The position numbers were made by a program, and so were the translations under genes. Shown here piece by piece: positions 10,167 through 64,000 of a stretch of 64,000 bases of DNA (position 1 is its first letter; each line of letters opens with the position of its first letter). This stretch comes from a virus (lineage: Duplodnaviria > Caudoviricetes), in the IMG/VR virus record IMGVR_UViG_3300017766_003652, positions 1 to 64,000 of that record; one strand, given 5' to 3'. The notes beneath the pieces were generated by a model. The model was not told the origin of the DNA. It made no database searches and saw only the letters and a list, made by a program, of their open reading frames with translations.

Positions 10167-11012
10167 ATGGAACTAACCGCAAAAGAAAAAGAAGTTCTCG
10201 CCCGGTTAGGGATAACCGGGACCCTTAAATGTGACCATTGCGGTCACCGTATCGCCTCTGTGATGTACTACAAAGGGGCGCAACCTGGAACCACATACTG
10301 TTCAAACTCCTGTTTCGAAGTAGGCGAGCAGATAACCCGGTCCCGTTCTCAACGGAATCAGCAAGGAACCACTACCATGATTGACAAGACACCCAAGCGC
10401 GACTCCGAGGAGTCCCCCAAGAAGAAAAAGGCCACCGAGGCGGAGGAGGCTCCCAAGAAAAAGAAACGGGACGCCGAGGAGGCCCCGGAGGAGAAGCCGG
10501 CCAAGAAAAAGAAGCCGGTCGATGACGACGAGGATGAGGACGAGGTCCCCAAGAAAAAGAAAAAGGTGACCGAGGCCCCCGCCGAGGATAAGCCAGCCAA
10601 GAAAAAGAAACGGGATGCCGAGGAGCCCGCGGACGACGAGGACGAGGACGAGGACGAGGCCCCCAAGAAAAAGAAGAAGGCCTCGGAGGCCGCCCCGGCC
10701 GATGCCAAGCCGGCCAAGGATAAGGGCAAGGACAAGAAGGACAAACCGGCCAAGGACAAACCGGCCAAGGAGTCCAAGCCCAAGGAGAAGAAGGACAAGC
10801 CGGGAGAGAACCCGTATCGCGCCGGGACCATGTGCCATAAGGTGCTGGCCCGCCTGCTCGGAGGGAAGCCCCGGACGTTCGAACAGCTCTTCAAGGATCT
10901 GGAGGCCGGAGACGGTCGGCGTATGCTCGGCTGTATCATCGAGCGCGGCGAGCAACGGGGTGGGTACTCCATCAAGAAGAATTCGGATGGTACCTTCCAG
11001 CTGGCCTCCTAA
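10167..11012 (+). CDS. Lys/Glu-rich low-complexity protein with N-terminal Zn-finger; possibly DNA-binding
   Basis: CDHC...YCSNSC, repeated EEAPKKKK/DDEDED blocks, small globular C-terminus; GGAGG RBS; alternative start at 10378. Confidence 0.75.
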   Translation: MELTAKEKEVLARLGITGTLKCDHCGHRIASVMYYKGAQPGTTYCSNSCFEVGEQITRSRSQRNQQGTTTMIDKTPKRDSEESPKKKKATEAEEAPKKKKRDAEEAPEEKPAKKKKPVDDDEDEDEVPKKKKKVTEAPAEDKPAKKKKRDAEEPADDEDEDEDEAPKKKKKASEAAPADAKPAKDKGKDKKDKPAKDKPAKESKPKEKKDKPGENPYRAGTMCHKVLARLLGGKPRTFEQLFKDLEAGDGRRMLGCIIERGEQRGGYSIKKNSDGTFQLAS

Positions 11013-42269: not shown

Positions 42270-43019
42270 ATGGCCAAACCGAAGCCGATTAACACGAAGT
42301 CCCGCCGCCAAAGTAGCGCCAGGGCTCCGGGACCCAGGGTGTCAGCCACCCGTAATATGAAGGGGAAACCTCCCTCGGCCAAGCGCAAACCTCCTAAGCC
42401 TGGAGCCGCCAACCTGATGACCGCGGAAGCCCTCATCTCCTCCCAGCTAAAGGGCGTAGACGAGTTCGCATCCTTGGTTCAACCCTACTTCCTCAAGATC
42501 AGCGATGTGGTCCGAGGGGTAACCCTCCCCATGCAACCGAGTGACGACATCATCCGGGCTATCGGGCACTTGGTCCGGCTAGGCAACTTCCCGGAGGTGG
42601 CGGCTCGGGCCTTGGGAGTACGCACCCATCTGTTCCGGGAGTGGGTAGCCTTGGGACTCAAGGACCCCCACAGCTCCTACGGTCGGCTCGTTGCAGCGAT
42701 TGATATCGCCGATGCGCAGGACGAGATCTCCGATGTCCAGCTCATCACCATCGGCGTTAAGCACTGGAGCGCGCTCGCCTGGAAACGTGAGCGCAAAACG
42801 GCACGGCGCTGGAAACCCAAGTTCGAGCACACGATCATTGGAACAGATGACTATGGTGGCGGAGGTACTCCAAAGTATGAGCACGTGCCGGATGCCAACA
42901 CCGCCGAGTCAATCCTTCAAACTTTACAAGACCTGGGAGTACTACACAATGTCATGCCATTACCCACCAAGGACTCAGAAGCCCCTGTGGCTGAGGATGA
43001 AGATGAGGGTGCCGGCTAG
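42270..43019 (+). CDS. probable terminase small subunit (HTH)
   Basis: LGNFPEVAARALGVRTHLFREW HTH and WSALAWKRERK...RW motif typical of TerS-like proteins. Confidence 0.6.
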   Translation: MAKPKPINTKSRRQSSARAPGPRVSATRNMKGKPPSAKRKPPKPGAANLMTAEALISSQLKGVDEFASLVQPYFLKISDVVRGVTLPMQPSDDIIRAIGHLVRLGNFPEVAARALGVRTHLFREWVALGLKDPHSSYGRLVAAIDIADAQDEISDVQLITIGVKHWSALAWKRERKTARRWKPKFEHTIIGTDDYGGGGTPKYEHVPDANTAESILQTLQDLGVLHNVMPLPTKDSEAPVAEDEDEGAG

Positions 43020-44057: not shown

Positions 44058-44936
44058 ATGCAACCCACAAGCGTCCCGGTACTCCCGCCGCTACCAAGCT
44101 CCGCCACCTACGGACCGGAGCAACTCCAGATCTTCACCCGCTTCAATCGGGGCACCTACATGGCCAAGTTCGGCCAGCAAGCCCCGCCTTGGGACAAATC
44201 CAAGCCGATCAAACGCTGGTTCCATACCGGCGCCGCTTCGACGGAGAACTACCTCTACTTCAACGACAGCGCAAAGCAACTCCAGGTCATGACGATGTCC
44301 GCCGAGGAAGCGGCATCGATCAACCTGCCGGGGTCCTATGACTACCCCGCCTACGTTATCGCCCCGACCCCGGCCACCATCATTTCCATGGGCTCCCGGT
44401 ATCCGGTCCGCGCCGATGTCCTCAGCGCCGAGGAGGATGCCAGGGGCCTGGCGGATATCCTCCAGCGGTTTCTCGGTCCGGTCCCGGCGATACAGGTGCG
44501 GGAGAGCGACTCCTTTACCGGGGTCAACCTCGCGGTGGACTGGGGCGCCGAGACCCGGCGAGCCTGGACCGTTGTGATCGGGAGCCAGGCTTACTCCGTG
44601 GGCCTCCTCCTCCGCACCCGCAACCTGAACGGGGTCGGGGCTCCCGGAGTCTGGAATGTCAAAGTGGGCCTCGCCCCGACCTGGGCCCCGGCCAGCCCTG
44701 GCGAGACCGGGGAACAGGATATCCGCCCGGAGGTTCCGATTCCCTGCCGTGCCCTCCAGCAGAACGAGTCCATCCGCCCGCATCCCCTGGGTCCGGTCTA
44801 TATCTACCGCAACGACATGCCGAATCCGTTTGAGACCGCGACCGGAGCCGGCGGCGGCTTCTCGGATAGCGACCGCAACACCCTCACCACGATCCTGAAT
44901 AACACTCAGGTCATTCTCGCCAATACCGCCCAGTAA
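44058..44936 (+). CDS. hypothetical protein, beta-rich
   Basis: AAAGGA RBS; highly biased codon usage. Confidence 0.8.
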   Translation: MQPTSVPVLPPLPSSATYGPEQLQIFTRFNRGTYMAKFGQQAPPWDKSKPIKRWFHTGAASTENYLYFNDSAKQLQVMTMSAEEAASINLPGSYDYPAYVIAPTPATIISMGSRYPVRADVLSAEEDARGLADILQRFLGPVPAIQVRESDSFTGVNLAVDWGAETRRAWTVVIGSQAYSVGLLLRTRNLNGVGAPGVWNVKVGLAPTWAPASPGETGEQDIRPEVPIPCRALQQNESIRPHPLGPVYIYRNDMPNPFETATGAGGGFSDSDRNTLTTILNNTQVILANTAQ

Positions 44937-45399: not shown

Positions 45400-45702
45400 A
45401 TGGCTATAGAAGGACTCACTCAAGCAGAAGTCAAGGTACTGGCAGAAACCTCAAACTTCCCCACCGGGATTCTTGGGACTGAAAGCCTGTTCCCAGCGAA
45501 CCGCCCGTACTTGTCCCGCCTAACGGATATCCTGAAGGATGTCCCTGATGCGGTACTCAACGCAAATTTCAAAGATCAAAGTGCCCGGGAAGAACTCTTT
45601 CGGCGGCACTTGAATAACAGACTCGGTCAGATGGTCCGCTTTATGACCTATGAGCGGCGTAAGAAAGCAAAGGAGCTTAACAATGGACGCGACAAGCGAT
45701 AA
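45400..45702 (+). CDS. hypothetical protein
   Basis: TACAAT-N6-ATG leaderless start. Confidence 0.7.
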   Translation: MAIEGLTQAEVKVLAETSNFPTGILGTESLFPANRPYLSRLTDILKDVPDAVLNANFKDQSAREELFRRHLNNRLGQMVRFMTYERRKKAKELNNGRDKR

Positions 45703-46525
45703 CGTGCTGGCGATGCCGGCCCCGGTACCTCCCGGAGATGAGGAGGGCGGTTCCCTTCTGGAGCTGGCTGATGGCAAGACCTATCGGCTGGTCTTCGATG
45801 GGGTGGCCATCATGGCCCTTGACGATCTCATGGGGATCAACTTCATCGAGGGCAAGTTCATCCCCAATAACGCCACCCGTTTGCGGGCCCTGCTCTGGGC
45901 GTGCACCCGGGCCCATCACCCGGAACTTACCCTGGAGGATGTCGGGGATCTGGTCCTGGCTGCCAATATGACCGGGGTCATGGCTGCCGTTTATCAGCTT
46001 CTCTCCGGGAACGCCAAGAAGGACCCCGATAGCCTGGCGCCGTTTGTCCCCTCCCATCTGGAGGTGGTTGAGAAAGCCCTGGCTCTCTCCGGGCTCCGGG
46101 AGGGTCAGCGGTTCGCCGACCTGGGCTGCGGAGATGGTCGGGTCCTCGCAAAGGCCTTTGCCATTACCAAGACCCATGTCCTTGGGTACGAGTACGATGC
46201 TGGCCGGGCCAAGCAGAGCCGGGACCTGCTGGAGCTGATGAAGATCGATGGCCGGATCGTGGAGGATAAGATTCAGAACGCCGACCTCCTCGGTATCGAC
46301 GTCGTGTTTGTCTACCTCCTGACCGAGAGCAACGCCCGGTTGAAGGCGAAACTCCTCCAGTTCCTCAAGCCGGGGGCCAAGGTAGTCAGCCATGACTTTC
46401 CGATGCCCGGCTGGACGAGCCAGGTAGAGGAGCGGTTCGTGATCGCGGACGGCGACAACCCGGAAGCCGGGATCAGCCACTCGGTCTTCGTTTACGAGAT
46501 CGGGGAAGGGACCCCGGCAGAATGA
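45683..46525 (+). CDS. fusion of tail-assembly-chaperone-like domain and class I SAM methyltransferase (FAM173/DOT1-like)
   Basis: N: YRLVFDGVAIMALDDLMG...LRALLWAC...HPELTLEDVG; C: PFVPS...DLGCGDGRV...GYEYD...DVVFVYLL...LKPGAKVVSHDF; AAAGGAG RBS. Confidence 0.85.
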   Translation: MDATSDNVLAMPAPVPPGDEEGGSLLELADGKTYRLVFDGVAIMALDDLMGINFIEGKFIPNNATRLRALLWACTRAHHPELTLEDVGDLVLAANMTGVMAAVYQLLSGNAKKDPDSLAPFVPSHLEVVEKALALSGLREGQRFADLGCGDGRVLAKAFAITKTHVLGYEYDAGRAKQSRDLLELMKIDGRIVEDKIQNADLLGIDVVFVYLLTESNARLKAKLLQFLKPGAKVVSHDFPMPGWTSQVEERFVIADGDNPEAGISHSVFVYEIGEGTPAE

Positions 46526-47648: not shown

Positions 47649-48962
47649 TTGCTAGACACCGCTACAGGCTGGCGGGCTGTCATCAACAGCCACCCGGAGC
47701 TTCTCAGGAAGCTCACGCCCCGCTTCAACAAGTACATTCCCATACGCCCCAATGCGAAGCAATGGGTCGCCCTCCTACTTAACAACGTCCCGGAAGTTTT
47801 CTATGGTGGCGCTGCCGGAGGGGGCAAGACTGACTGGCTCCTCGCCGAGGCCCTCCAGTATGTTGACGTCGAGAACTATGCGGCGCTCATCCTCCGCAGA
47901 ACCTACAGCCAGCTGGATATGCAGGACTCCATCCTACATAGAGCCCACCTATGGCTCCGCAACACTGAGGCGATCTGGCAACCCAAGCAGTACAGGTACC
48001 TATTCCCCTCGACCGGGGCCACTGTTACCTTTGGCTATCTGGAGAATGAGGCTGACAAGTACCGATATGACGGCCCAGCGTTCCAGTGCGTTTGCTATGA
48101 TGAGCTAACCCACTTTAAGGAGTCACAGTACACCTTTCTGGCCAGCCGCCTCCGCAAACCTCCGGGGATGCCCGTTCCCCTCCGCCTCCGATCCGCTAGC
48201 AACCCGGGAAACTTGGGGCATGGGTGGGTGAAGGATCGGTTCGTTAAGAGCAACTCAGCCGACCGCATCTTTGTACCGGCCAAGCTGGAGGATAACGCCG
48301 AGCACGTTGATATCGCCTCATACGAACGCTCCTTTGCGATCCTTGATCCGATCACCCGCAAACAGCGGCGGGAAGGGGACTGGGATGCGGATATCGAAGG
48401 GGCTTACTTCAAACGCAGTTGGTTCACACAGTTCGTAGATGCCGAGCCCGCCAAACTACATGCGGCCCGCGCATGGGATCTGGCAGCGACCCAGGGAGCG
48501 GGCGACTTTACCTCCGGGGCCAAAGTAGGGACCGACCCGGACAAACTATGGTATGTCTGCGATATCAAGTCCGGGCAGTACTCCTCCCTCACTGTACGCC
48601 GGTTAATCCGGCACGTAGCGGAGACTGATGGAAAGATACCTATCATTCTGGAGCAGGAACCTGGGTCTGCCGGAAAGACCGTTGCTGAGGACTACATCCG
48701 GCAGCTGGCCGGTTGGCGAGTTGAGGCAATTCCCTCGACCAAGAAGAAGTACATCCGGTGGCAGCCCTTTATCTCTCAGTGTGAGGCGGGCAACGTAGTC
48801 ATCGTGAACGGGGCCTGGAACGTCTCTTTCTTTCAACAGCTGTTCTCTGTACCCTTCTCCGCCCATGATGACGATGTCGACTCGGTGACCTCGGCGTTCA
48901 ATTGGTTGGCAAAGAATCCCTCTGGCAGATTCGGTATTAGTTTCCTAGGAGGTCGGCGATGA
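47649..48962 (+). CDS. terL: terminase large subunit
   Basis: YGGAAGGGKT Walker A, YDELTHF Walker B, ASNPG, AWDLA, EQEPGSAGK, HDDDVD; TTG start after GGGAGA. Confidence 0.95.
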   Translation: MLDTATGWRAVINSHPELLRKLTPRFNKYIPIRPNAKQWVALLLNNVPEVFYGGAAGGGKTDWLLAEALQYVDVENYAALILRRTYSQLDMQDSILHRAHLWLRNTEAIWQPKQYRYLFPSTGATVTFGYLENEADKYRYDGPAFQCVCYDELTHFKESQYTFLASRLRKPPGMPVPLRLRSASNPGNLGHGWVKDRFVKSNSADRIFVPAKLEDNAEHVDIASYERSFAILDPITRKQRREGDWDADIEGAYFKRSWFTQFVDAEPAKLHAARAWDLAATQGAGDFTSGAKVGTDPDKLWYVCDIKSGQYSSLTVRRLIRHVAETDGKIPIILEQEPGSAGKTVAEDYIRQLAGWRVEAIPSTKKKYIRWQPFISQCEAGNVVIVNGAWNVSFFQQLFSVPFSAHDDDVDSVTSAFNWLAKNPSGRFGISFLGGRR

Positions 48963-49615
48963 AGCGCATCAAGATCAGCCCTGCGCAAGATAAGCGGGAG
49001 GGAACCTCCACCGTACCGGCTTCCCGGGTCCAGGTTAGCCGCCTCAAGATCAAGCCCCACGGGCACGCGGAAGTGGAAATCTATCCGCTGGTTCTACGCC
49101 TGGTCAAGCGGTGCTATAAGGGCATCGCCGAGGATGGCCGGCTAGAGTATCAAGACCTTATCAGTGAAGGGGTCCTCGCCGTACTGGAATGCCTACGCCG
49201 GTACAAACCGCCCAAGGGTAAGGCAAAGCCTACCAAGTTCTCGACCTTTGCGTTCTTCCGGATAGTCGGAGCCCTCAAGGATGTCGTCAAGAAGCAGGAC
49301 AAGTTTGGGGTACGGATACAGCTCGTGGGCGGGGATGAGTTTGACCAGCAGGTAGCCCGCCCCAGTTTCCTGGAAATGGATGTCTCGAACCGGGAACTCT
49401 TCCTGAAGGTTATCCAGATCATAGAGAAGAAACTCCCGCCGACTCTGGCGGTCGTGCTTATCCGGTCCTACCTGGAGGAGTGGCCGGATCGAACCATAGC
49501 CAAGGAGCTGGGGGTTACCTTGGTTCAACTTGAAATACTCCGGCAAAAAGCTCTGGAGGGGGTACGCCACCAGCTCCCTGTATCCCGGAAGCAGTTTGGA
49601 ACCTGGGTCGGATGA
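48959..49615 (+). CDS. sigma70-family RNA polymerase sigma factor (group 3-like)
   Basis: region 2 QDLISEGVLAVLECLRRY...KFSTFAFFRIVGALKD; region 4 HTH RTIAKELGVT. Confidence 0.85.
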   Translation: MKRIKISPAQDKREGTSTVPASRVQVSRLKIKPHGHAEVEIYPLVLRLVKRCYKGIAEDGRLEYQDLISEGVLAVLECLRRYKPPKGKAKPTKFSTFAFFRIVGALKDVVKKQDKFGVRIQLVGGDEFDQQVARPSFLEMDVSNRELFLKVIQIIEKKLPPTLAVVLIRSYLEEWPDRTIAKELGVTLVQLEILRQKALEGVRHQLPVSRKQFGTWVG

Positions 49616-49641: not shown

Positions 49642-51045
49642 ATGCAAAGTTCTCTCATTAAAACAATCACGGCGCCGATCAGTACGGTCTGGTCCGCTTT
49701 CACCAAGAGTGTAGCGGTCCGGGCTGCCTCCATGAAGTTCCAGGCAGTCCGAGGTGTGTTCTCGAACCCTTATGATGGCATCAGTTTCCATCAGGCCTGC
49801 CAGCTTGGGTACAAAGGACTGGTCTGGGTGTACCGCTGCATCAATGCCTACGGTGATGCGGTGGGCAGCGTAAAGTGGGTCGCCTACCGAGTGAAAGAGG
49901 ATGGCTCTGAGGAGCTGCTCCCGAATCATCCGCTGGAGCAACTCGCCAATAAGCCGAACCCTTACATGGCGAGGAAAGAGTTCTACAGCCTCTGGGGAAT
50001 CTACCTGATGCTGGCCGGGGAATCCTATTGGGAAGTTGCCTATGACTCCAAGAAGATGCCGCGGTTCCTGTATCCTGTCCGGCCCGATTGGATCAACGCG
50101 ATTCCGCACCCGGTGACGTTTATCAATGGCTACCTATTTGATCCGGGCGGTGGCGAGAAACCTACCCGCATGGAGAACGACGAGATCGTTTGTTTCAAGT
50201 TCCCGAACCCGGAGAATGACTATAAGGGGCTCTCGCCTCTATCGGCTGGTATGCGGACCCTGGAAACGGAGAACCGCATTATCAATTGGAACAATAGCCT
50301 TCTCGAAAACAATGCGGTTCCCGGTGGTGTCCTCTCGGTCCCCTCCACCTCCCTGGAAACCACGGAGCGGGACGATCTGGTCAGGACCCTGGAAGAAGAG
50401 TACTCGCGGCGTAACGTACACCGGCCTATGGTCCTCTGGGGTGGGATGCAATGGACCCAGATGTCCCTATCACAAAAGGATCTGGATTTCGCCGGCTTGA
50501 AGAACCTGACCAAGCAGGAGATTCACGGCGTGCTCGGCGTGCCGGAGGAGTTGACCAACGCAAACCCCGCGGCCAAGTACGAGAACAAAGCCCAAGCGCG
50601 GACCATGTTCTGGGAGGATCGGGTCCTTCCTCTCCTCGATTGGCTGACCAACACTTTCAACATGCGGCTCGCCCCTTTGTACGGGGATGGAGTCCTGCTC
50701 CGTGCCGACATCTCCAATCATCCGGCGATGATTGACGCCTTCATCCGCAAGGTGAACACGGCGAAGATACTTGTCGAAGCCGGCTGGCCTTTGAACGGGG
50801 TCAATCGCCGGCTAGACCTGGGCATGGGTGATGTTGCTTGGGGCAACGTGGCTTGGATGCCCTCCAGCAAGGTTCCGGTCGGAGATGAGGAAGGCCACCT
50901 GCTCGATCCCACCAACCTCCCGGACCCGGAGGAGGAAGACCCGGCTGATCCTATCGAGGAGCCGGATGAGGACGAGGCCGAGGCTGAGGCCCGGCAGGAA
51001 GACGTTTCCGAAGACAAACCAAAGAAGCCGAAGAAGGGGATCTAA
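49642..51045 (+). CDS. portal protein, HK97 family
   Basis: VYRCINA, HPLEQLANKPNPYM, LAGESY, PVRPD, GLSPL, NAVPGGVL, LGVP; acidic tail. Confidence 0.93.
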   Translation: MQSSLIKTITAPISTVWSAFTKSVAVRAASMKFQAVRGVFSNPYDGISFHQACQLGYKGLVWVYRCINAYGDAVGSVKWVAYRVKEDGSEELLPNHPLEQLANKPNPYMARKEFYSLWGIYLMLAGESYWEVAYDSKKMPRFLYPVRPDWINAIPHPVTFINGYLFDPGGGEKPTRMENDEIVCFKFPNPENDYKGLSPLSAGMRTLETENRIINWNNSLLENNAVPGGVLSVPSTSLETTERDDLVRTLEEEYSRRNVHRPMVLWGGMQWTQMSLSQKDLDFAGLKNLTKQEIHGVLGVPEELTNANPAAKYENKAQARTMFWEDRVLPLLDWLTNTFNMRLAPLYGDGVLLRADISNHPAMIDAFIRKVNTAKILVEAGWPLNGVNRRLDLGMGDVAWGNVAWMPSSKVPVGDEEGHLLDPTNLPDPEEEDPADPIEEPDEDEAEAEARQEDVSEDKPKKPKKGI

Positions 51046-51825: not shown

Positions 51826-53691
51826 ATGTTCTACCGTTTCGACAAACTAGATCCCAGAACCCGCAACTGGCTCCGTACCCTTTACCGGGGCATGGAGCCT
51901 CACCAATTAACGGACCTTGTATGCACGGAAGAGGTCACCCGTGTGTTTCAACTCAAGTCCATAGAGACTCGGCGCCAGAACTGGGAGAGGGCCTGGGAAC
52001 CCAAGCTCGGGTCCCTCCTCCAGAAAGTCGGGCGGGAAGTGGCTCTGGACTACAGAGGGGCTCAGAGCGCGGAGCATGCCGTTACGGTTATGCGGCGGGA
52101 ACTGGAAGTCCCTTTGCACAGATCCCTGGTGGCTCTGTACTCTGATGTCCAGACCGAGTTCATCCGTATAGTCCCGGTAAGCCTGGCCGGCAAGAACTTC
52201 CAGCCGGTACAGTACGTGAAGCAGGATGACCCTTTCGATATCGATCCAGCAAACTGGCAGGAGCAGAACCCCTTGGATCTGCCCAAGATGCAAAAGTATA
52301 ACCGGCTGACCATCGGAGCCCACGTTTCAAAGATCCTGGAGAGCACGACCATCTGGATTAAAGAAATGGTCAGCGATGCCCTGGAGAATGGCTGGAGCGT
52401 TGACCGTACCGCCCAGAAGCTCACAGAGCTCTATGGGTTCTCGTTCAAGCGAGCTCGGCTCATCGCACAGACCGAGGTGGTTGGAGCCAGTAACGCGGCT
52501 ACCTACTTCTCCATGGACAAGAACGTCCCGACCGCCACCATGATAAAGGACTGGATCAACGCGGGAGACCATAGGGTTCGCGACTCCCACATAGATGCAG
52601 GACTATCCCAGCGAGGCATCCCCTTCAGCGATCCCTTCGAGGTCGGAGGCAGCCAGCTGATGTTTCCGGGAGACGCCTCCCTTGGGGCCTCAGGCCGGGA
52701 AATCATTGGGTGCCGCTGTACCGCCCTCTACCAGACTCCCGGATCTCGCCGGTCTCGGATCTACCAAGGGCTGCAGGAGAACAATGACCGGGCAAACGTA
52801 GGAGGTAAACGCCCGCAACCGGCACCAAAGCCGGCACCAAAGCCGGCACCTAAACCGAAACCGAGTCCCAAACCGAAACCCAAGCCGGCACCGATGCCCC
52901 CGCCCAAGCCAGCACCTCCACCTCCACCTCCAAAGCCGGCTCCTACTCCTCCACCTCCTCCAGCCCCTAAGCCGCCCCCTCCACCTCCACCTCCTCCTCC
53001 TCCACCTACCTGGCCTAAGCCAGCCCCTAAACCGGCACCAAAGCCGGCTCCTACACCAAAGCCAGCTCCAAAGCCAGCTCCTACACCTCCGCCCCCTCCA
53101 CCGCAACCCTCCGCGGCCCCGCCCGCCTCGGCTTTCTCCAGGGATCGCTCCAAGGTATTCCCTACCTTCAATGAGGCAAAAGAGTATTTGACAACGCAGG
53201 GGGTTAACTGGTGGAACAGATTGTACGAGGAAGAGAAGACTGCGACCATGAAGTATACCGGGCACGCCTATAAAAGAATCAATACAGCTCTGCGGGGTGG
53301 GAGTGTACTGTCCCCAGAAGGTAAACGAACCGTGGCTGATATTGATTCCGCTATCCGCAAGGGCGTGCTCCAGGATCAGCTCCTCGTCTACCGCGGTATC
53401 GAGAACGGGGCAAACCTCGCAGAGCTGAAACATCTCCAGGTCGGGGGCTACTATACCCCCTCTGCCTATATCTCTACCTCCATTCGATCAGAGGCTGCCT
53501 TTGGCGGGGACACCTTCATGAAGATCCACCTCCCAAAGGGTTCCAGGGTCGGACTGATAGACGGCAACTCCTATAATCCCCAAGAGCTGGAACTCCTCCT
53601 CCCTCGCGGGGCTAGGTTGAAACTGATTAGCACCAACACCGGGCACCGAGGGAGCAAGCCCGTTCGCATCCTGGAGTTTGTGCTTGAATAG
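51826..53691 (+). CDS. MuF/gpF-like minor head protein fused via a Pro-rich linker to a VIP2/C3-like ADP-ribosyltransferase
   Basis: ARLIAQTEV, KDW...D.RVRDSH, IGCRC (MuF); KYTG..YKRINTALR, VYRG, YISTS, ELELLLPRG (R-S-E ART). Confidence 0.9.
   Translation: MFYRFDKLDPRTRNWLRTLYRGMEPHQLTDLVCTEEVTRVFQLKSIETRRQNWERAWEPKLGSLLQKVGREVALDYRGAQSAEHAVTVMRRELEVPLHRSLVALYSDVQTEFIRIVPVSLAGKNFQPVQYVKQDDPFDIDPANWQEQNPLDLPKMQKYNRLTIGAHVSKILESTTIWIKEMVSDALENGWSVDRTAQKLTELYGFSFKRARLIAQTEVVGASNAATYFSMDKNVPTATMIKDWINAGDHRVRDSHIDAGLSQRGIPFSDPFEVGGSQLMFPGDASLGASGREIIGCRCTALYQTPGSRRSRIYQGLQENNDRANVGGKRPQPAPKPAPKPAPKPKPSPKPKPKPAPMPPPKPAPPPPPPKPAPTPPPPPAPKPPPPPPPPPPPPTWPKPAPKPAPKPAPTPKPAPKPAPTPPPPPPQPSAAPPASAFSRDRSKVFPTFNEAKEYLTTQGVNWWNRLYEEEKTATMKYTGHAYKRINTALRGGSVLSPEGKRTVADIDSAIRKGVLQDQLLVYRGIENGANLAELKHLQVGGYYTPSAYISTSIRSEAAFGGDTFMKIHLPKGSRVGLIDGNSYNPQELELLLPRGARLKLISTNTGHRGSKPVRILEFVLE
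52810..53125 (+). repeat. coding Pro/Lys/Ala tandem repeats (PAPK, poly-Pro)
   Basis: CCGGCACCAAAG-type 12-mers and CCTCCA runs. Confidence 0.85.
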
Positions 53692-54946: not shown

Positions 54947-56215
54947 ATGAATCGCGAAGAACTGGAGCAGATGCAGAAGACCTTTACCGGCTTCAAAACT
55001 TTGCTCGATACGCAGGCAGCGGAACTCAAGACGACCGGGCAACTTTCCAGCGAGACCAAGGAACGGCTGGACAAGTTCAATGCCAAGTTCGATGAGCTGG
55101 AAAAGGGCATCAACGAACGCATGGATCGCATCGATGCGATCAAGGCCTTCCAGGCGGACGTCGAGAAGCGCATCGGCGAGATTGAGGCCACCTTCTCCCG
55201 CAAGGGCAAGTTCACTCACACCTCCGAGGTGGAGACCGAGGCCAAGCGCCTCCTGAGTCTCAAGTGGGGAGCCCTGGAAAAGGTCCTCCGCAAGGGCATC
55301 GCGCCGCAGGGGCTCAAGGGTACGGATGAGCTGACCCCGGAAGAGCTGAAGGCCTTGACGGTCTCCAGCAACCCGCAGGCCGGCTACCTGGCGCCCAAGG
55401 AATACGTCATGGAGATCCTGACGGATGTTGTCGAGTGGTCCCCGGTTCGGCCCCTGTGCCGCATCCGCACCACCGGCCGCAGCGGCATCGAGATCCCGCG
55501 CCGGTTGACCCCGGCCGCCGCCTCCTGGGTCAGTGAAACGGGGACCCGGTCCGAGACCACGAACCCGACCTTCACGATGGAAACGATTCCGACCCATGAG
55601 CTGTACGCCATGGTCCAGGTTTCGGCGCAGGAGATGGAAGACTCCCTGTTCGACCTCCAGGCCTTCCTGCGGGAAGAGTTTGGCGAGCAGTTCGGCGTGA
55701 CCGAAGGTGCGGCCCTGGTCGATGGCAACGGCGTTGGCCGGCCGGAAGGTTTCATGCAGCACACCGGCATCGGTCATGAGGTTTCGGAGCACGCCTCCGA
55801 GATCACCGCCGATGGCCTCCTGAATGCGTACCATGCGCTGAAGGAAGCCTACCTGGCGAACGCCACCTGGGTCATGTCCCGCAGCACTCTGCGCGACATC
55901 CGGAAGCTCAAGGATGCCACCGGTAACTACCTGTGGTCGCCCGGCATCAAGATGGAAGCCCGCCCGGCTCAGTTGCTCGACCGCCCGTACGTCACCGCTC
56001 CCGACATGCCGTCGATTGCGGCCAATGCGTACCCCGTCATCGTCGGCGACTTCCGCCGCGGCTACCTCCTGGTGGACCGCATCGAAATGTCCATGATGGT
56101 CGACCCCTACACCGCCAAGCGAACCGGCATGATCGAGATCAGCGCCCGCAAGCGGGTCGGTGGTCAGGTCGTCATCGCGGATGCGTTCAAGAAGCTCAAG
56201 ATCGCTGCCGCCTAA
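54947..56215 (+). CDS. major capsid protein, HK97 fold with delta domain
   Basis: coiled-coil N-terminus, GYLAPKE, ASWVSE, GNGVGRPEG, KDATGNYLW, GDFRRGY, RVGG. Confidence 0.95.
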   Translation: MNREELEQMQKTFTGFKTLLDTQAAELKTTGQLSSETKERLDKFNAKFDELEKGINERMDRIDAIKAFQADVEKRIGEIEATFSRKGKFTHTSEVETEAKRLLSLKWGALEKVLRKGIAPQGLKGTDELTPEELKALTVSSNPQAGYLAPKEYVMEILTDVVEWSPVRPLCRIRTTGRSGIEIPRRLTPAAASWVSETGTRSETTNPTFTMETIPTHELYAMVQVSAQEMEDSLFDLQAFLREEFGEQFGVTEGAALVDGNGVGRPEGFMQHTGIGHEVSEHASEITADGLLNAYHALKEAYLANATWVMSRSTLRDIRKLKDATGNYLWSPGIKMEARPAQLLDRPYVTAPDMPSIAANAYPVIVGDFRRGYLLVDRIEMSMMVDPYTAKRTGMIEISARKRVGGQVVIADAFKKLKIAAA

Positions 56216-60431: not shown

Positions 60432-60866
60432 ATGAGCAGCGTAGCAATCAGCGCCTTTGGAACACTCGTTCAGATCGGGGATGGTGGCACGCCCGAAGCG
60501 TTTACCACTATCGCCGAGTTGCGGACGATCTCCGGCCCCTCTCTGACCGCGGATGTGATCGATGTCACCGTACACAATACGGCGACTCCGTTCCGCCGCT
60601 TCATTAGCGGCTTGATCGATGGCGGCGAGATCCAGATTGACATCAACTTCGTTCCCCAGGAAACGACCCACAGCTACAGCACGGGCCTTCTGGCGGATAT
60701 GTTGAACCGCACCCGCCGCAACTTCGCCCTCGTGTTCCCGGACTCGGGCACGACCACCTGGATTATCCCCGGCATCATCACCAGCTTCGAGTGCTCCTCG
60801 GACCCGGCTGATGTTTTGATGGCCTCGGTGACGATCAAGGTTTCCGGCCCGCCGACCTTCGAGTAG
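60432..60866 (+). CDS. tail tube (major tail) protein
   Basis: GTLVQIGDG...ISGPSLTADVIDVT...GLIDGGE...GIITSF...TIKVSG.P. Confidence 0.88.
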   Translation: MSSVAISAFGTLVQIGDGGTPEAFTTIAELRTISGPSLTADVIDVTVHNTATPFRRFISGLIDGGEIQIDINFVPQETTHSYSTGLLADMLNRTRRNFALVFPDSGTTTWIIPGIITSFECSSDPADVLMASVTIKVSGPPTFE

Positions 60867-60986: not shown

Positions 60987-61352
60987 ATGCGACTCGAGAA
61001 CATTCTTCAACAGACTACCCCGGTTCGGCTCGACAAGCCTCGCCGGATGCTCATCACCCTGAACTCCCTGGCTGAGGTGGAAACCACAACCGGGCGTTCG
61101 ATCCTCATCCCCGGCGACCTCGGTAAGCCGTCCGCCAAGATCCTGTTCACCATGATTGCCGCGTTCTGTCGGCATGAGGACCCGGAGGTTACGGTCGCTC
61201 AGATCGCCCGCGGGTTCAACATGCAGCGGATGCCGGAGCTCATGAAGGCTATCACCGGGGCCTGGGAAAAGAACGCGGCCGGTACTCCTGCCGCCAAGGC
61301 GGACCCCACCGGAAATTTTCCTCCGGCGGCTCTGGAAGCGGTGTCCGCCTAA
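60987..61352 (+). CDS. tail assembly chaperone (G)
   Basis: LDKPRRML.TLNSLAE.E...HEDPEVT; located between tube and tape measure genes. Confidence 0.85.
   Translation: MRLENILQQTTPVRLDKPRRMLITLNSLAEVETTTGRSILIPGDLGKPSAKILFTMIAAFCRHEDPEVTVAQIARGFNMQRMPELMKAITGAWEKNAAGTPAAKADPTGNFPPAALEAVSA
61313..61319 (+). other. programmed -1 frameshift slippery site A AAT TTT
   Basis: in-frame X XXY YYZ heptamer; the -1 frame is open to 61741. Confidence 0.85.
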
Positions 61353-61741
61353 ACTGGTACGAGCTGTGGGCCCTGGCTCGCTATGATCTGGGGCTAACCG
61401 ACACAGAGTTCTGGCAACTAACCCCGAAGCAGTTATTCGCTTTGATCGACCGCAAAAAAGCGGCGGATAAAGCGGAGGACTACCGCTTCGGGGTTATTGC
61501 GTCCACGCTTTGTAACCTCCAGCGGAATCCCAAGAAGCAAAAGAAGGCCTTCGAACCGAGTGACTTCTTTCTCAGCCTCAAGGATAAAGATGCCGCGGAT
61601 AAGAAACAGACGTGGAAGCAGCACCTCGCCATCGCGACCCAGCTCCATGCCCTGTTCAAGGGCGTAGGCAAACCAAAGCCGCAGGAAGATACAACGCCGC
61701 AAGTAGTAGAAGCCCCCAAACAGAAACGGTCCAGAAAGTAA
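61313..61741 (+). CDS. tail assembly chaperone GT extension (-1 frame)
   Basis: NWYELWALARYDLGLTDTEFWQLTPKQ...RFGVIAS.LCN. Confidence 0.85.
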   Translation, partial: KFSSGGSGSGVRLNWYELWALARYDLGLTDTEFWQLTPKQLFALIDRKKAADKAEDYRFGVIASTLCNLQRNPKKQKKAFEPSDFFLSLKDKDAADKKQTWKQHLAIATQLHALFKGVGKPKPQEDTTPQVVEAPKQKRSRK

Positions 61742-61753
61742 GCCGGAGGCAGC

Positions 61754-64000
61754 ATGGCAGAGATAGATGTCGGTCGAATGTTCATCAGGCTCGGACTCGA
61801 GCTCGAAGAGTTCTCAAACGGTCTGCAACAGGTTGAGCAGGAGTTAGAGAAACGGGCGATGGCCTTTGGGAAGCTGGGCATCGGACTCTCCGCTGCTCTC
61901 ACTGCTCCTCTCGCGGGCCTCGCCTCTGAGGGGTTGTCTACCCTGGCTAGCTTTGAGAAGGAGATGAACAAGGTCTCCGCGGTCGGTGGCATCTTTGGGG
62001 AGGATCTAAAGAAGCTGACCGCTCAGGCCATGATGCTTGGTGATACCACGGTATACAGTTCCAAGCAGGCCGCAGCGGCCATGGGAGAACTCGCCGCCGC
62101 TGGCTTCAAATCCAACGAAGTCTACTCTGCCATGCCCGGCGTTCTATCCCTGGCCGCTGTCGAGGGAATGAAGATCGGGGATGCCGCCAAGATCGCCGCG
62201 GCTGCGATCAATCAATTCGGGTTCGAGGCCAAGGATATGGGCATGATTGCCGATACAATGGCAGCCACCTCCTCCGCCTCGGCCACCTCAGTACAGGCCC
62301 TCGGAAATTCGTTCCAGTATATTGGCTCCGTATCCCGCACCACCAATCAGAGTTTCAAGGATATCTCTGCCGCGTTGGGCGCCCTCGCTCAGGCCGGCCG
62401 TACCGGAGAGTCAGCCGGTACCGCCCTGCGTTCCATGCTTATGTCCCTGCAGGACCCGAGCAAGCGAGGTACTGCCGCCCTCAAGGCCCTCAAGGAATCA
62501 GTGTATGAAGCCAATGGGCAGCTGAAGCCCATGGGGGAACTCATCCGTATCCTTCAGCCTCTGATGGACGATGCCCAGAAAGGCATCGCTATCTTTGGTA
62601 AGCGGTGGAGCGACGTCTCCGCCCTCCTCCAGGATGGGGGCAAGAACTTCTACGCGATTTCAAAGGGCCTGGAGGATGTCACCGGGTCCTCTAAGAAAGC
62701 CGCGGATATCATGCAGCAGGGGCTCGCTGGAGCCTTTGAGAAACTGACCAGCTCTTTGGAAGGGGTTAACCTCCGCATCGGTAAGATCCTGGCCCCGATC
62801 GCCATGGAACTGATGAAGATGGCCACCGCCGTATCCGATGCGGTCAGCAAGTCTCTGGACGAGTTTGTCAAGCTCGACCCCATGATTCAGAATGCCGTAC
62901 TTGGGTTCGCCGCCCTCCTGGCAGCCCTGGGTCCGGTATCCCTGGCGATCGCTGGATTCTACGCAGCCCTGGCTACCCTGGCAACCACTCTCCCGGCCGT
63001 CACCGCTATGTTCGGAGCCGGAGGAGCCGGGCTGGCCGCTATGGCTACGGCAGGGACCGCGGTCGGTGTAGCTCTTGCCGGGTGGGAGCTGTACAAGATC
63101 TACAAAGACCTGGTGGAACTCAAGGATAGCGTCCAGGCTCTCACCTCTGAATTCGTTAACTGGAGCAAGTCGCTGGAGATTGCGACCATTATCGCGGAGG
63201 GCCTCTGGAAGATCCTTCTTGAGCTACCTCCTGGCTTTGTGCCGTTCATCTCCATCCTGAAAGTCGCTGGGATGGAGACCGGCGGGTTCGTGAACTTCAT
63301 CCGCACTTTGTATGAGGGGTTGAAGAAGCTGGCCTCGGATATCGGCAACCCGGTCGGGGCCATCGTGAAGACCCTCCTCCAGCTATCCGAGTCCATGCGC
63401 AAGGCCTTTGGGGATGGAGGAGCCGAGAACGCCAAGGCCATGGCGGATGGCGCAAACAGCGTCATGCGCAACATGATGATGAACTCGGAAACCGTGGCCA
63501 AAGGCCTGGAGGCCATGACCATCCGGGTTAAGGAGGTCATCAAGAAAGAGAAGGCCAACGTCGACGACCGGGGCAAACTGCTTGACGAGGAGGACAAGCA
63601 AACCAAGAAGAAAAAGAAGATAGTCGACGAGGAGATGGTGACTATTAAGGCCGCTCTTGCCTCTAAGGAGGCTATGGCCAAGGTCGATGCAGCCATCATT
63701 GACTTCCAGGTCCGTGCCCACAAGCAACTATCTACTGATGTGCACGATGCCCTACGCAAGGTCATTCTGGACTGGGAAGCCCTCCATGCCATGATTGGGG
63801 ACACCTCGGCCTGGAAGAAACTGACCCCGGTCATGGAAGAGGTTATGAAGGGGATTGCCAAGCCCCTGGAGGATGCAGTCGCTCATACCAAGGCTTTGGA
63901 TGACGCATTCAAGAACCTTGGGGTAAAGTCGGTTGAATCCCTCCGGGCTGTCCGGGATCAGGCGATTGAATCCCAACGGGCCATTCAAGCGGCCATGGAT
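61754..64000 (+). CDS. tape measure protein, TP901-like (partial, runs off the window)
   Basis: GGAGG RBS; FEKEMNKV.A, GDTT.YSS..AA.AM..LAAAG, MPGVLSLAA; frame open to 64000. Confidence 0.92.
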   Translation, partial: MAEIDVGRMFIRLGLELEEFSNGLQQVEQELEKRAMAFGKLGIGLSAALTAPLAGLASEGLSTLASFEKEMNKVSAVGGIFGEDLKKLTAQAMMLGDTTVYSSKQAAAAMGELAAAGFKSNEVYSAMPGVLSLAAVEGMKIGDAAKIAAAAINQFGFEAKDMGMIADTMAATSSASATSVQALGNSFQYIGSVSRTTNQSFKDISAALGALAQAGRTGESAGTALRSMLMSLQDPSKRGTAALKALKESVYEANGQLKPMGELIRILQPLMDDAQKGIAIFGKRWSDVSALLQDGGKNFYAISKGLEDVTGSSKKAADIMQQGLAGAFEKLTSSLEGVNLRIGKILAPIAMELMKMATAVSDAVSKSLDEFVKLDPMIQNAVLGFAALLAALGPVSLAIAGFYAALATLATTLPAVTAMFGAGGAGLAAMATAGTAVGVALAGWELYKIYKDLVELKDSVQALTSEFVNWSKSLEIATIIAEGLWKILLELPPGFVPFISILKVAGMETGGFVNFIRTLYEGLKKLASDIGNPVGAIVKTLLQLSESMRKAFGDGGAENAKAMADGANSVMRNMMMNSETVAKGLEAMTIRVKEVIKKEKANVDDRGKLLDEEDKQTKKKKKIVDEEMVTIKAALASKEAMAKVDAAIIDFQVRAHKQLSTDVHDALRKVILDWEALHAMIGDTSAWKKLTPVMEEVMKGIAKPLEDAVAHTKALDDAFKNLGVKSVESLRAVRDQAIESQRAIQAAMD

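Follow-up and report, generated by a model that had tools for sequence, protein, structure and literature searches.

A phage gene joining a predicted tail-assembly-chaperone-family domain to a predicted aKMT/FAM173-type methyltransferase

Introduction

The gene considered here encodes a protein in which a domain of the tail-assembly-chaperone (TAC) family is followed by a methyltransferase domain of aKMT/FAM173 type, as judged from sequence and predicted structure. It lies at 45683..46525 of the first 64 kb (the window) of IMGVR_UViG_3300017766_003652, an IMG/VR virus record that is complete at 89,011 bp and bounded by direct terminal repeats. The virus is an uncultured phage. The long open reading frames (ORFs) of the window that were taken as genes are all on the + strand, and its G+C content is even at ~59%. 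The closest described systems are the tail chaperones of phage lambda, the MuF-toxin fusions, the aKMT/FAM173 enzymes and the host-dependent methylation of phage virions.

In lambda gpGT, binding to the tape measure protein is a property of the G part, and contacts with tube subunits are made by the part that follows it. The fusion resembles lambda gpG/gpGT (GTA-gp10 branch, PF11836, phrog_2115) in sequence consensus, in predicted fold and in having a G-type domain followed by a second domain. It differs in that no -1 frameshift is needed to reach the second domain, which continues in frame and is an enzyme rather than a tube-binding T domain; moreover, the gene is found outside the tail module, in a phage that has its own canonical G/GT pair. 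MuF-toxin fusions (SPP1 gp7/MuF), one of which is encoded at 51826..53691 by the same phage, likewise combine a virion-assembly domain with an enzyme domain. However, MuF proteins reach the host as cargo of the head, whereas tail chaperones such as lambda gpG/gpGT are normally absent from finished virions, so the fusion more likely acts during assembly.

The enzyme aKMT (aKMT4; 5FA8/5FAD/5JWJ) is the archaeal homologue of FAM173B, and each of aKMT, FAM173A and FAM173B methylates proteins specifically on lysine (PMC5828452, PMC9006661). The eukaryotic homologues are also known as ATPSc-KMT (FAM173B) and ANT-KMT (FAM173A), and methylation by FAM173B promotes the assembly of a multi-subunit machine (PMC9006661). 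The whole 160-amino-acid catalytic domain aligns with the fusion at ~32% identity, and the two share the N-terminal element (V/A)P(Y/F)VP(T/S), motif I DxGxGxG, the acidic post-I residue and the C-terminal beta-hairpin. In contrast to the fusion, which is bacteriophage-encoded and begins with a phage chaperone domain, aKMT carries no extra domain, and the FAM173 proteins have an N-terminal transmembrane anchor in that place (PMC9006661).

The first reports of methylated phage virion proteins date from 2026 and concern host enzymes only (PMC13288928, PMC13445384). These reports show that methylation of phage structural proteins, including those of the tail, is possible and can bear on infectivity. 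In a mycobacteriophage, methylation of the tail protein Gp34 depends on MepM and falls on Glu and Ser, not Lys (PMC13445384), and virion proteins of Cellulophaga phages are methylated (PMC13288928). In both cases methylation is the work of host-encoded enzymes, the phages themselves having no methyltransferase gene according to the authors (PMC13288928, PMC13445384). The locus described here differs in that the candidate enzyme is encoded by the phage and has a putative targeting domain of its own.

A single reading frame encodes two domains

The gene and the parts of its product are as follows.

45683..46525, + strand: fusion gene, 280 amino acids plus stop; TAC-like domain, linker and aKMT-type methyltransferase
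45670..45675, + strand: Shine-Dalgarno sequence AAGGAG, read in the sequence, 7 nucleotides ahead of the ATG at 45683
45743..46012, + strand: N-terminal TAC-like domain, residues ~21-110, a beta-hairpin and four helices (profile, phmmer, predicted fold)
46010..46033, + strand: disordered linker, residues 110-117
46034..46513, + strand: aKMT/FAM173-type seven-beta-strand methyltransferase dependent on S-adenosylmethionine, residues 118-277 (phmmer, Foldseek, motifs)
46118..46141, + strand: motif I, DLGCGDGR, within the methyltransferase domain

The ORF listing gives 45650..46525, and the start was taken at the ATG at 45683; the exact 280-residue product is present in a public protein collection (P0001). 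An AlphaFold2 model of the fusion, built on 11 fusion homologues, has a mean predicted local distance difference test score (pLDDT) of 82, which rises to ~90 in the methyltransferase domain and falls below 50 in the linker. The preliminary description, made from the DNA alone, had proposed an ORF fusing a tail-assembly-chaperone domain to a protein-lysine-methyltransferase-like domain. The frame is unbroken in 17 independent homologues, so the gene is not a merged gene pair, and the assignments of both halves to their families were correct.

The C-terminal half belongs to the aKMT/FAM173 family

A phmmer search aligned residues 119-275 with residues 7-159 of the 161-residue aKMT of Sulfolobus islandicus (5FA8/5FAD, E 8.6e-19) and also matched the NMR entry of aKMT, 5JWJ (E 7e-18). 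The best structural match of the model in Foldseek was again aKMT (5fad, E 5e-16, template-modeling (TM) score normalized to the target 0.88, root-mean-square deviation 1.9 over 161 columns), followed by Salinibacter 5BXY and then by DOT1L. Pfam gave only sub-threshold matches of the C-terminal half to generic methyltransferase families, including PrmA and DOT1. As previously described, a complete class I methyltransferase starts at 46034 (residue 118), with LAPFVPS, DLGCGDGR, GYEYD, DVVFVYLL and VVSHDF all present, and its placement in the FAM173/DOT1-like protein-lysine methyltransferase group is borne out, in that it is a full-length aKMT/FAM173 homologue by both phmmer and Foldseek.

Across 11-15 homologues the N-terminal segment LAPFVP, motif I (D146-L-G-C-G-D-G-R), E170, Y211-L-L, N217, H237, F239 and W244 are invariant or nearly so. 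Within the motif I pattern D146-G-x-G-x-G, D146 and the glycines are invariant, and the acidic post-I residue E170 is invariant or nearly invariant. Mutation of the corresponding motif I aspartate (D94) abolishes the activity of FAM173B, for which it is essential (PMC5828452). With these motif residues conserved, the enzyme looks active, and given what its family does it is probably a protein lysine methyltransferase.

The N-terminal half belongs to the tail-assembly-chaperone superfamily

Residues 29-108 match the PHROG family phrog_2115 'tail protein' (E 1.1e-8; E 1.1e-10 in a scan of virus records). Searching residues 1-118 with phmmer against 1.8 billion representatives returned 139 proteins at E <= 1e-3, with E values down to 7e-9 for stand-alone family members. 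About 130 of these are stand-alone proteins of 100-145 amino acids that match end to end, and the remainder are fusions and a few long proteins. A word-indexed search for short relatives of the N-terminal domain found none, and the relatives emerged by exhaustive HMMER search. In two sampled stand-alone relatives the gene order is tail tube gene, relative, small ORF and long tape-measure-like ORF. In an alignment (A4) of 34 stand-alone proteins and the N-terminal domain itself, 20 of the 35 rows match PF11836 (Phage_TAC_11, GTA gp10), mostly under the cut-off, with a best E of 5.6e-11; another fusion, P0187, matches it as well. The Pfam link of the N-terminal domain is thus transitive, since the matches come from the A4 relatives and P0187 and not from the domain in the window.

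The predicted fold points the same way. In a structure search of the ESM Atlas, in which a predicted model is compared with predicted models, residues 20-115 gave TM scores of 0.72-0.78 over residues 20-113 to clusters annotated GTA-gp10, Phage_TAC_12 and 'phage tail protein', so that the N-terminal half is predicted to have the chaperone fold. A profile search of the PDB with the TAC alignment returned chance matches only, and no solved structure of the TAC family was found by sequence. A fold search of BFVD with the whole fusion model recovered methyltransferases only and is uninformative on the N-terminal domain. The family consensus is intact in the N-terminal domains of all 17 fusions and throughout their lineage. 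On the sequence matches, the predicted fold and the gene context of the relatives, we assign the N-terminal half to the gpG/GTA-gp10 tail-assembly-chaperone superfamily as a true member, diverged but well conserved.

The gene lacks two hallmarks of tail assembly chaperone genes. It lies outside the slot between the tube and tape measure genes, 1.1 kb upstream of the large terminase gene (TerL) and 15 kb from the tail module, and its second domain follows in frame with no programmed -1 frameshift arrangement. We therefore use the name 'chaperone-derived domain' and do not call the protein a tail assembly chaperone.

The same phage keeps an ordinary G/GT chaperone

The usual slot is occupied in this phage by a separate chaperone gene.

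60432..60866, + strand: major tail (tube) protein (phrog_158, E 2.1e-18)
60987..61352, + strand: canonical tail assembly chaperone G product, 121 amino acids, between the tube and tape measure genes (phrog_2115, E 4.2e-7)
61313..61319, + strand: slippery heptamer A_AAT_TTT in the G frame, read in the sequence, 33 nucleotides ahead of the G stop
61178..61741, + strand: -1 frame open across the G stop, T extension; stop-to-stop ORF with a weak match to phrog_337 'tail protein'
61754..64000, + strand: tape measure protein, continuing past the window end (phrog_1533, E 9e-91)

The tape measure gene begins 13 nucleotides past the end of the T extension, and the slip site and the -1 frame are complete, from which a G/GT pair made by programmed frameshifting is predicted at 60987..61741. 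The phage is thus equipped with an ordinary G/GT chaperone, to which the fusion adds a paralogue that is not needed for basic chaperoning. The preliminary description had noted a resemblance between the N-terminal half and the protein at 60987. The two match the same positions of the phrog_2115 profile, which upholds that remark at the level of the family, but in direct BLASTP comparison they share only 22% identity, at E 0.1.

The fusion recurs in metagenomes and probably has a single origin

At least 17 fusion sequences were found among metagenomic and IMG/VR proteins. Ten proteins of a 5.8-billion-protein collection span both domains at 34-58% identity, two further fusions are on IMG/VR contigs L005 and L006, and the N-terminal domain search added four more (P0175, P0185, P0187 and P0293). 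A tblastn search with the fusion found no match in 50,697 deposited phage genomes, and in the searchable literature no paper was found that describes a TAC-methyltransferase fusion or a phage-encoded protein lysine methyltransferase. The earlier remark that no such fusion is known to have been described agrees with both searches: the joining of a known enzyme family to a chaperone domain is real, and it is new with respect to the deposited phage genomes and the searchable literature.

Each of the three virus records has exactly two matches to phrog_2115, one in the fusion and the other in a stand-alone TAC 15-24 kb away. Both other virus records also have a conserved tape measure protein (42% identity in G002). 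The carriers are a lineage of uncultured siphophage-like viruses in which the normal G/GT chaperone is kept.

A tree was built from the 17 fusion N-terminal domains and 132 stand-alone chaperones. In the free tree the fusions require two changes; when constrained as one clade they gave a tree 77 log-likelihood units better than the free search (approximately unbiased test, p-AU 0.93). The methyltransferase domains of the fusions cluster likewise, and P0011, the lone 'stand-alone' entry in that cluster, appears to be a fusion with a 5' truncation. Both trees would fit one ancient fusion event, not repeated duplications of each phage's chaperone, and the fusions probably form one old lineage of single origin. 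The earlier suggestion that the N-terminal half is a duplicate of the resident chaperone does not hold for a recent copy, which the 22% identity and the tree test reject.

The nearest non-fused methyltransferases are ~180 amino acids long and ~45% identical, and the named ones come from metagenome-assembled genomes of Bryobacteraceae, a likely host lineage; hosts from Bryobacteraceae/Acidobacteriota are probable. A hydrophobic leader of signal-peptide or anchor type is present at the N-terminus of 45 of 108 stand-alone methyltransferase relatives; in the fusion, the chaperone domain stands in the leader position of these cellular relatives.

The fusion gene has an orphan companion

The genes immediately around the fusion and the terminase gene downstream of it are listed below.

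44058..44936, + strand: orphan 292-residue protein (P0121), upstream of the fusion at every locus examined
45400..45702, + strand: small ORF of 100 amino acids whose end overlaps the fusion start by 20 nucleotides; homologues of 40-43% identity in L001, L005 and L036
46522..46695, + strand: ORF of 57 amino acids overlapping the fusion stop; one hydrophobic helix
47649..48962, + strand: TerL, late region

Homologues of the 292-residue protein (29-41% identity by BLASTP) lie 0.5-1.3 kb upstream of the fusion in L001, L005, L006, L035, L036 and L037. A ~290-residue gene is thus found upstream on the same strand in all seven loci with DNA, and a 295-residue gene fills the slot on the P0002 contig. 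The flanks vary: the fusion is shortly upstream of TerL in the window, on the P0002 contig and in L035, and in L006 and L001 it lies among genes for a DNA methyltransferase, a polymerase exonuclease subunit, MazG and dCMP deaminase.

The 292-residue protein is confidently modelled by AlphaFold2 (pLDDT 92), with a long C-terminal helix at residues 270-291, and contains 2.1% Lys. Foldseek against the PDB gave nothing below E 1e-3, the best VIA-align Z was only 3.0, and searches of Pfam, PHROGs and the ESM Atlas yielded no family or fold lead. The family has ~40 metagenomic relatives, and members without the fusion occur beside terminase or portal genes, in a Bryobacteraceae prophage and an SU10-like head module. 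Being confidently folded without a match among solved structures, the protein represents a second unexplored family in the same cassette.

In four of the seven loci the fusion is immediately preceded by a homologue of the small ORF, which overlaps the fusion start in the window, L001 and L036; the ORF is not recognisable in L006, L035 and L037. Its product is possibly a translationally coupled partner of the fusion. The protein looks helical and is rich in Lys and Arg at its end.

Proposed function and alternatives

The fusion may be a phage enzyme that methylates protein lysines and carries its own chaperone-type targeting domain, a proposal whose chances we put at about even. In this proposal the chaperone-like domain would replace the hydrophobic N-terminal leader; in terms of gpGT it would occupy the G part, with the enzyme where the T extension would be. 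The domain would select the substrate by bringing the enzyme to the natural partner of the chaperone fold: tape measure protein and assembling tube in the likeliest case, otherwise some other extended phage protein. By analogy with lambda gpGT the enzyme would be held at the growing tail, where it would methylate nearby lysines during assembly and then depart as chaperones do. The tape measure part inside the window contains 8.3% Lys.

The separate parts of this proposal differ in strength. We lean slightly towards a substrate that is a phage protein chosen by the N-terminal domain. Delivery to tail components, which the preliminary description had suggested, is plausible by the lambda analogy, and a tail component in particular can be put forward tentatively as the substrate; any part in evading proteases or defences, raised there too, would be conjectural. 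The most specific form, in which the gpG-like domain, in place of gpT, serves to deliver an enzyme and the tethered enzyme modifies the tape measure protein, the tube or both while the tail is built, is somewhat doubtful. If true, a bacteriophage would for the first time be seen to methylate its own virion proteins covalently with a virus-encoded system. The fusion is a concrete candidate for phage-directed modification of the phage's own particle or of a defined partner, and would show that the tail-chaperone fold can be used as a portable enzyme-targeting module.

Several observations weigh against the proposal. The N-terminal domain of the window reached no Pfam TAC model, giving no match to PF11836 at E up to 1, and with only 22% identity to the resident chaperone it may have lost the ability to recognise that chaperone's tape measure protein. 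Between the gene and the tail module lie 15 kb in the window and 23 kb in G002; this distance, together with the DNA-metabolism neighbours in L006 and L001, does not suggest co-expression with the tail genes. Its constant companion is the orphan ~290-residue protein and not a tail gene. On this point the preliminary description needs correcting: the fusion is never in the tail module but forms a cassette with this orphan. Finally, the second structural relative of the enzyme domain, 5BXY, was named an RNA methyltransferase by its depositors.

A cassette neighbour, and not the tail, could be the enzyme's partner or substrate, the TAC-like domain gripping the ~290-residue orphan, the small Lys/Arg-rich protein or both, so that the enzyme methylates what is held. 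The pairing on one strand in all seven loci and its counterpart on the P0002 contig speak for this, the more so as it persists despite the different flanks (TerL in the window, P0002 and L035; DNA metabolism in L006 and L001); so do the overlap of the small ORF with the fusion start, the conservation of that ORF in four of seven loci, and the long C-terminal helix of the 292-residue model. However, the ~290-residue family also occurs without the fusion, as in the Bryobacteraceae prophage and the SU10-like head module, the fusion phages are related, so that inherited gene order could explain the linkage, the 292-residue protein is Lys-poor, and the family and fold searches with it gave no functional lead. 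A complex prediction of the fusion with the 292-residue protein scored 0.00 twice, which counts neither for nor against binding. We consider a cassette neighbour unlikely as partner or substrate.

Alternatively, the fusion could be a broad-specificity lysine methyltransferase directed at the host, like aKMT in Sulfolobus, for takeover or counter-defence, whose N-terminal domain provides solubility, oligomerisation or localisation. aKMT methylates a large share of cellular proteins (bioRxiv 10.1101/2023.01.10.523387, PMC9006661), and methylation of host proteins rises early in Cellulophaga phage infections (PMC13288928). The cassette lies among early- or middle-type genes in L006 and L001, and the closest cellular homologues, being from Bryobacteraceae, fit a captured host enzyme. 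An inert tag, however, would hardly keep the chaperone consensus that is intact in all 17 fusions, which argues for a defined protein partner, and a host-directed role seems rather unlikely.

It is improbable that the substrate is RNA, DNA or a small molecule instead of protein. Class I methyltransferase folds switch substrate readily. The deposited name of 5BXY, a close structural relative, and a weak PHROG match to a 'tRNA methyltransferase' family (E 7e-4) would favour such a substrate. Yet the name of 5BXY appears to be its depositors' label, for which no activity data were found, aKMT tops both the sequence and the structure searches, and all characterised members of the aKMT/FAM173 family act on protein lysine (PMC5828452, PMC9006661).

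That an assembly or sequencing error merged two neighbouring genes can be dismissed as most improbable, since the same frame recurs in the 17 independent sequences, which are divergent (33-58% identity) and come from different samples, and points in favour of an error were looked for and none was found.

Other features of the window

Genes of the late region and two further genes are listed here.

10167..11012, + strand: Lys-rich protein of 281 amino acids; 19% Lys, PKKKK/acidic repeats
42270..43019, + strand: protein of 249 amino acids, weakly matching a small terminase (phrog_4102, E 1.4e-7); TerL follows 4.6 kb downstream
48959..49615, + strand: sigma-70-like factor gene, between TerL and portal (phrog_351, E 1e-12)
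49642..51045, + strand: portal, late region
51826..53691, + strand: MuF/SPP1-gp7 domain and Alt-like ADP-ribosyltransferase, 621 amino acids (phrog_2468, E 2e-35; phrog_3895, E 3e-14)
54947..56215, + strand: major capsid protein, late region, where a prohead protease gene is also found

The 621-residue protein is a MuF-toxin type fusion and probably packaged in the head, and an amidase gene is listed between the portal and this MuF-like gene. Ten proteins encoded between 25 and 42 kb had no match in PHROG annotation, which gave no lead to the expression class of that region.

The protein at 10167 had been named earlier as another possible substrate. No relative of it is present in G002, a complete phage genome with the fusion, which makes it unlikely as a conserved methylation target. 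Its repeats are flanked by a Cys-rich N-terminus and a folded-looking C-terminus, and it falls in no PHROG family. Homologues of the protein at 42270..43019 lie among early-type genes in L001 and L005, so the small-terminase call is uncertain. The position of the sigma-70-like gene between the large terminase and portal genes is an arrangement shared with the related P0002 contig.

Among further aKMT-like methyltransferases of viral and cellular origin, from viral contigs (L010, L012-L016, L018, L020-L022 and L024) and from the set P0012-P0037, many begin with a leader resembling a signal peptide or membrane anchor, which suggests an envelope-associated branch of the family. Several of the viral ones carry a Cys-rich motif, …C.NP.C.MCNR…, ahead of the enzyme domain.

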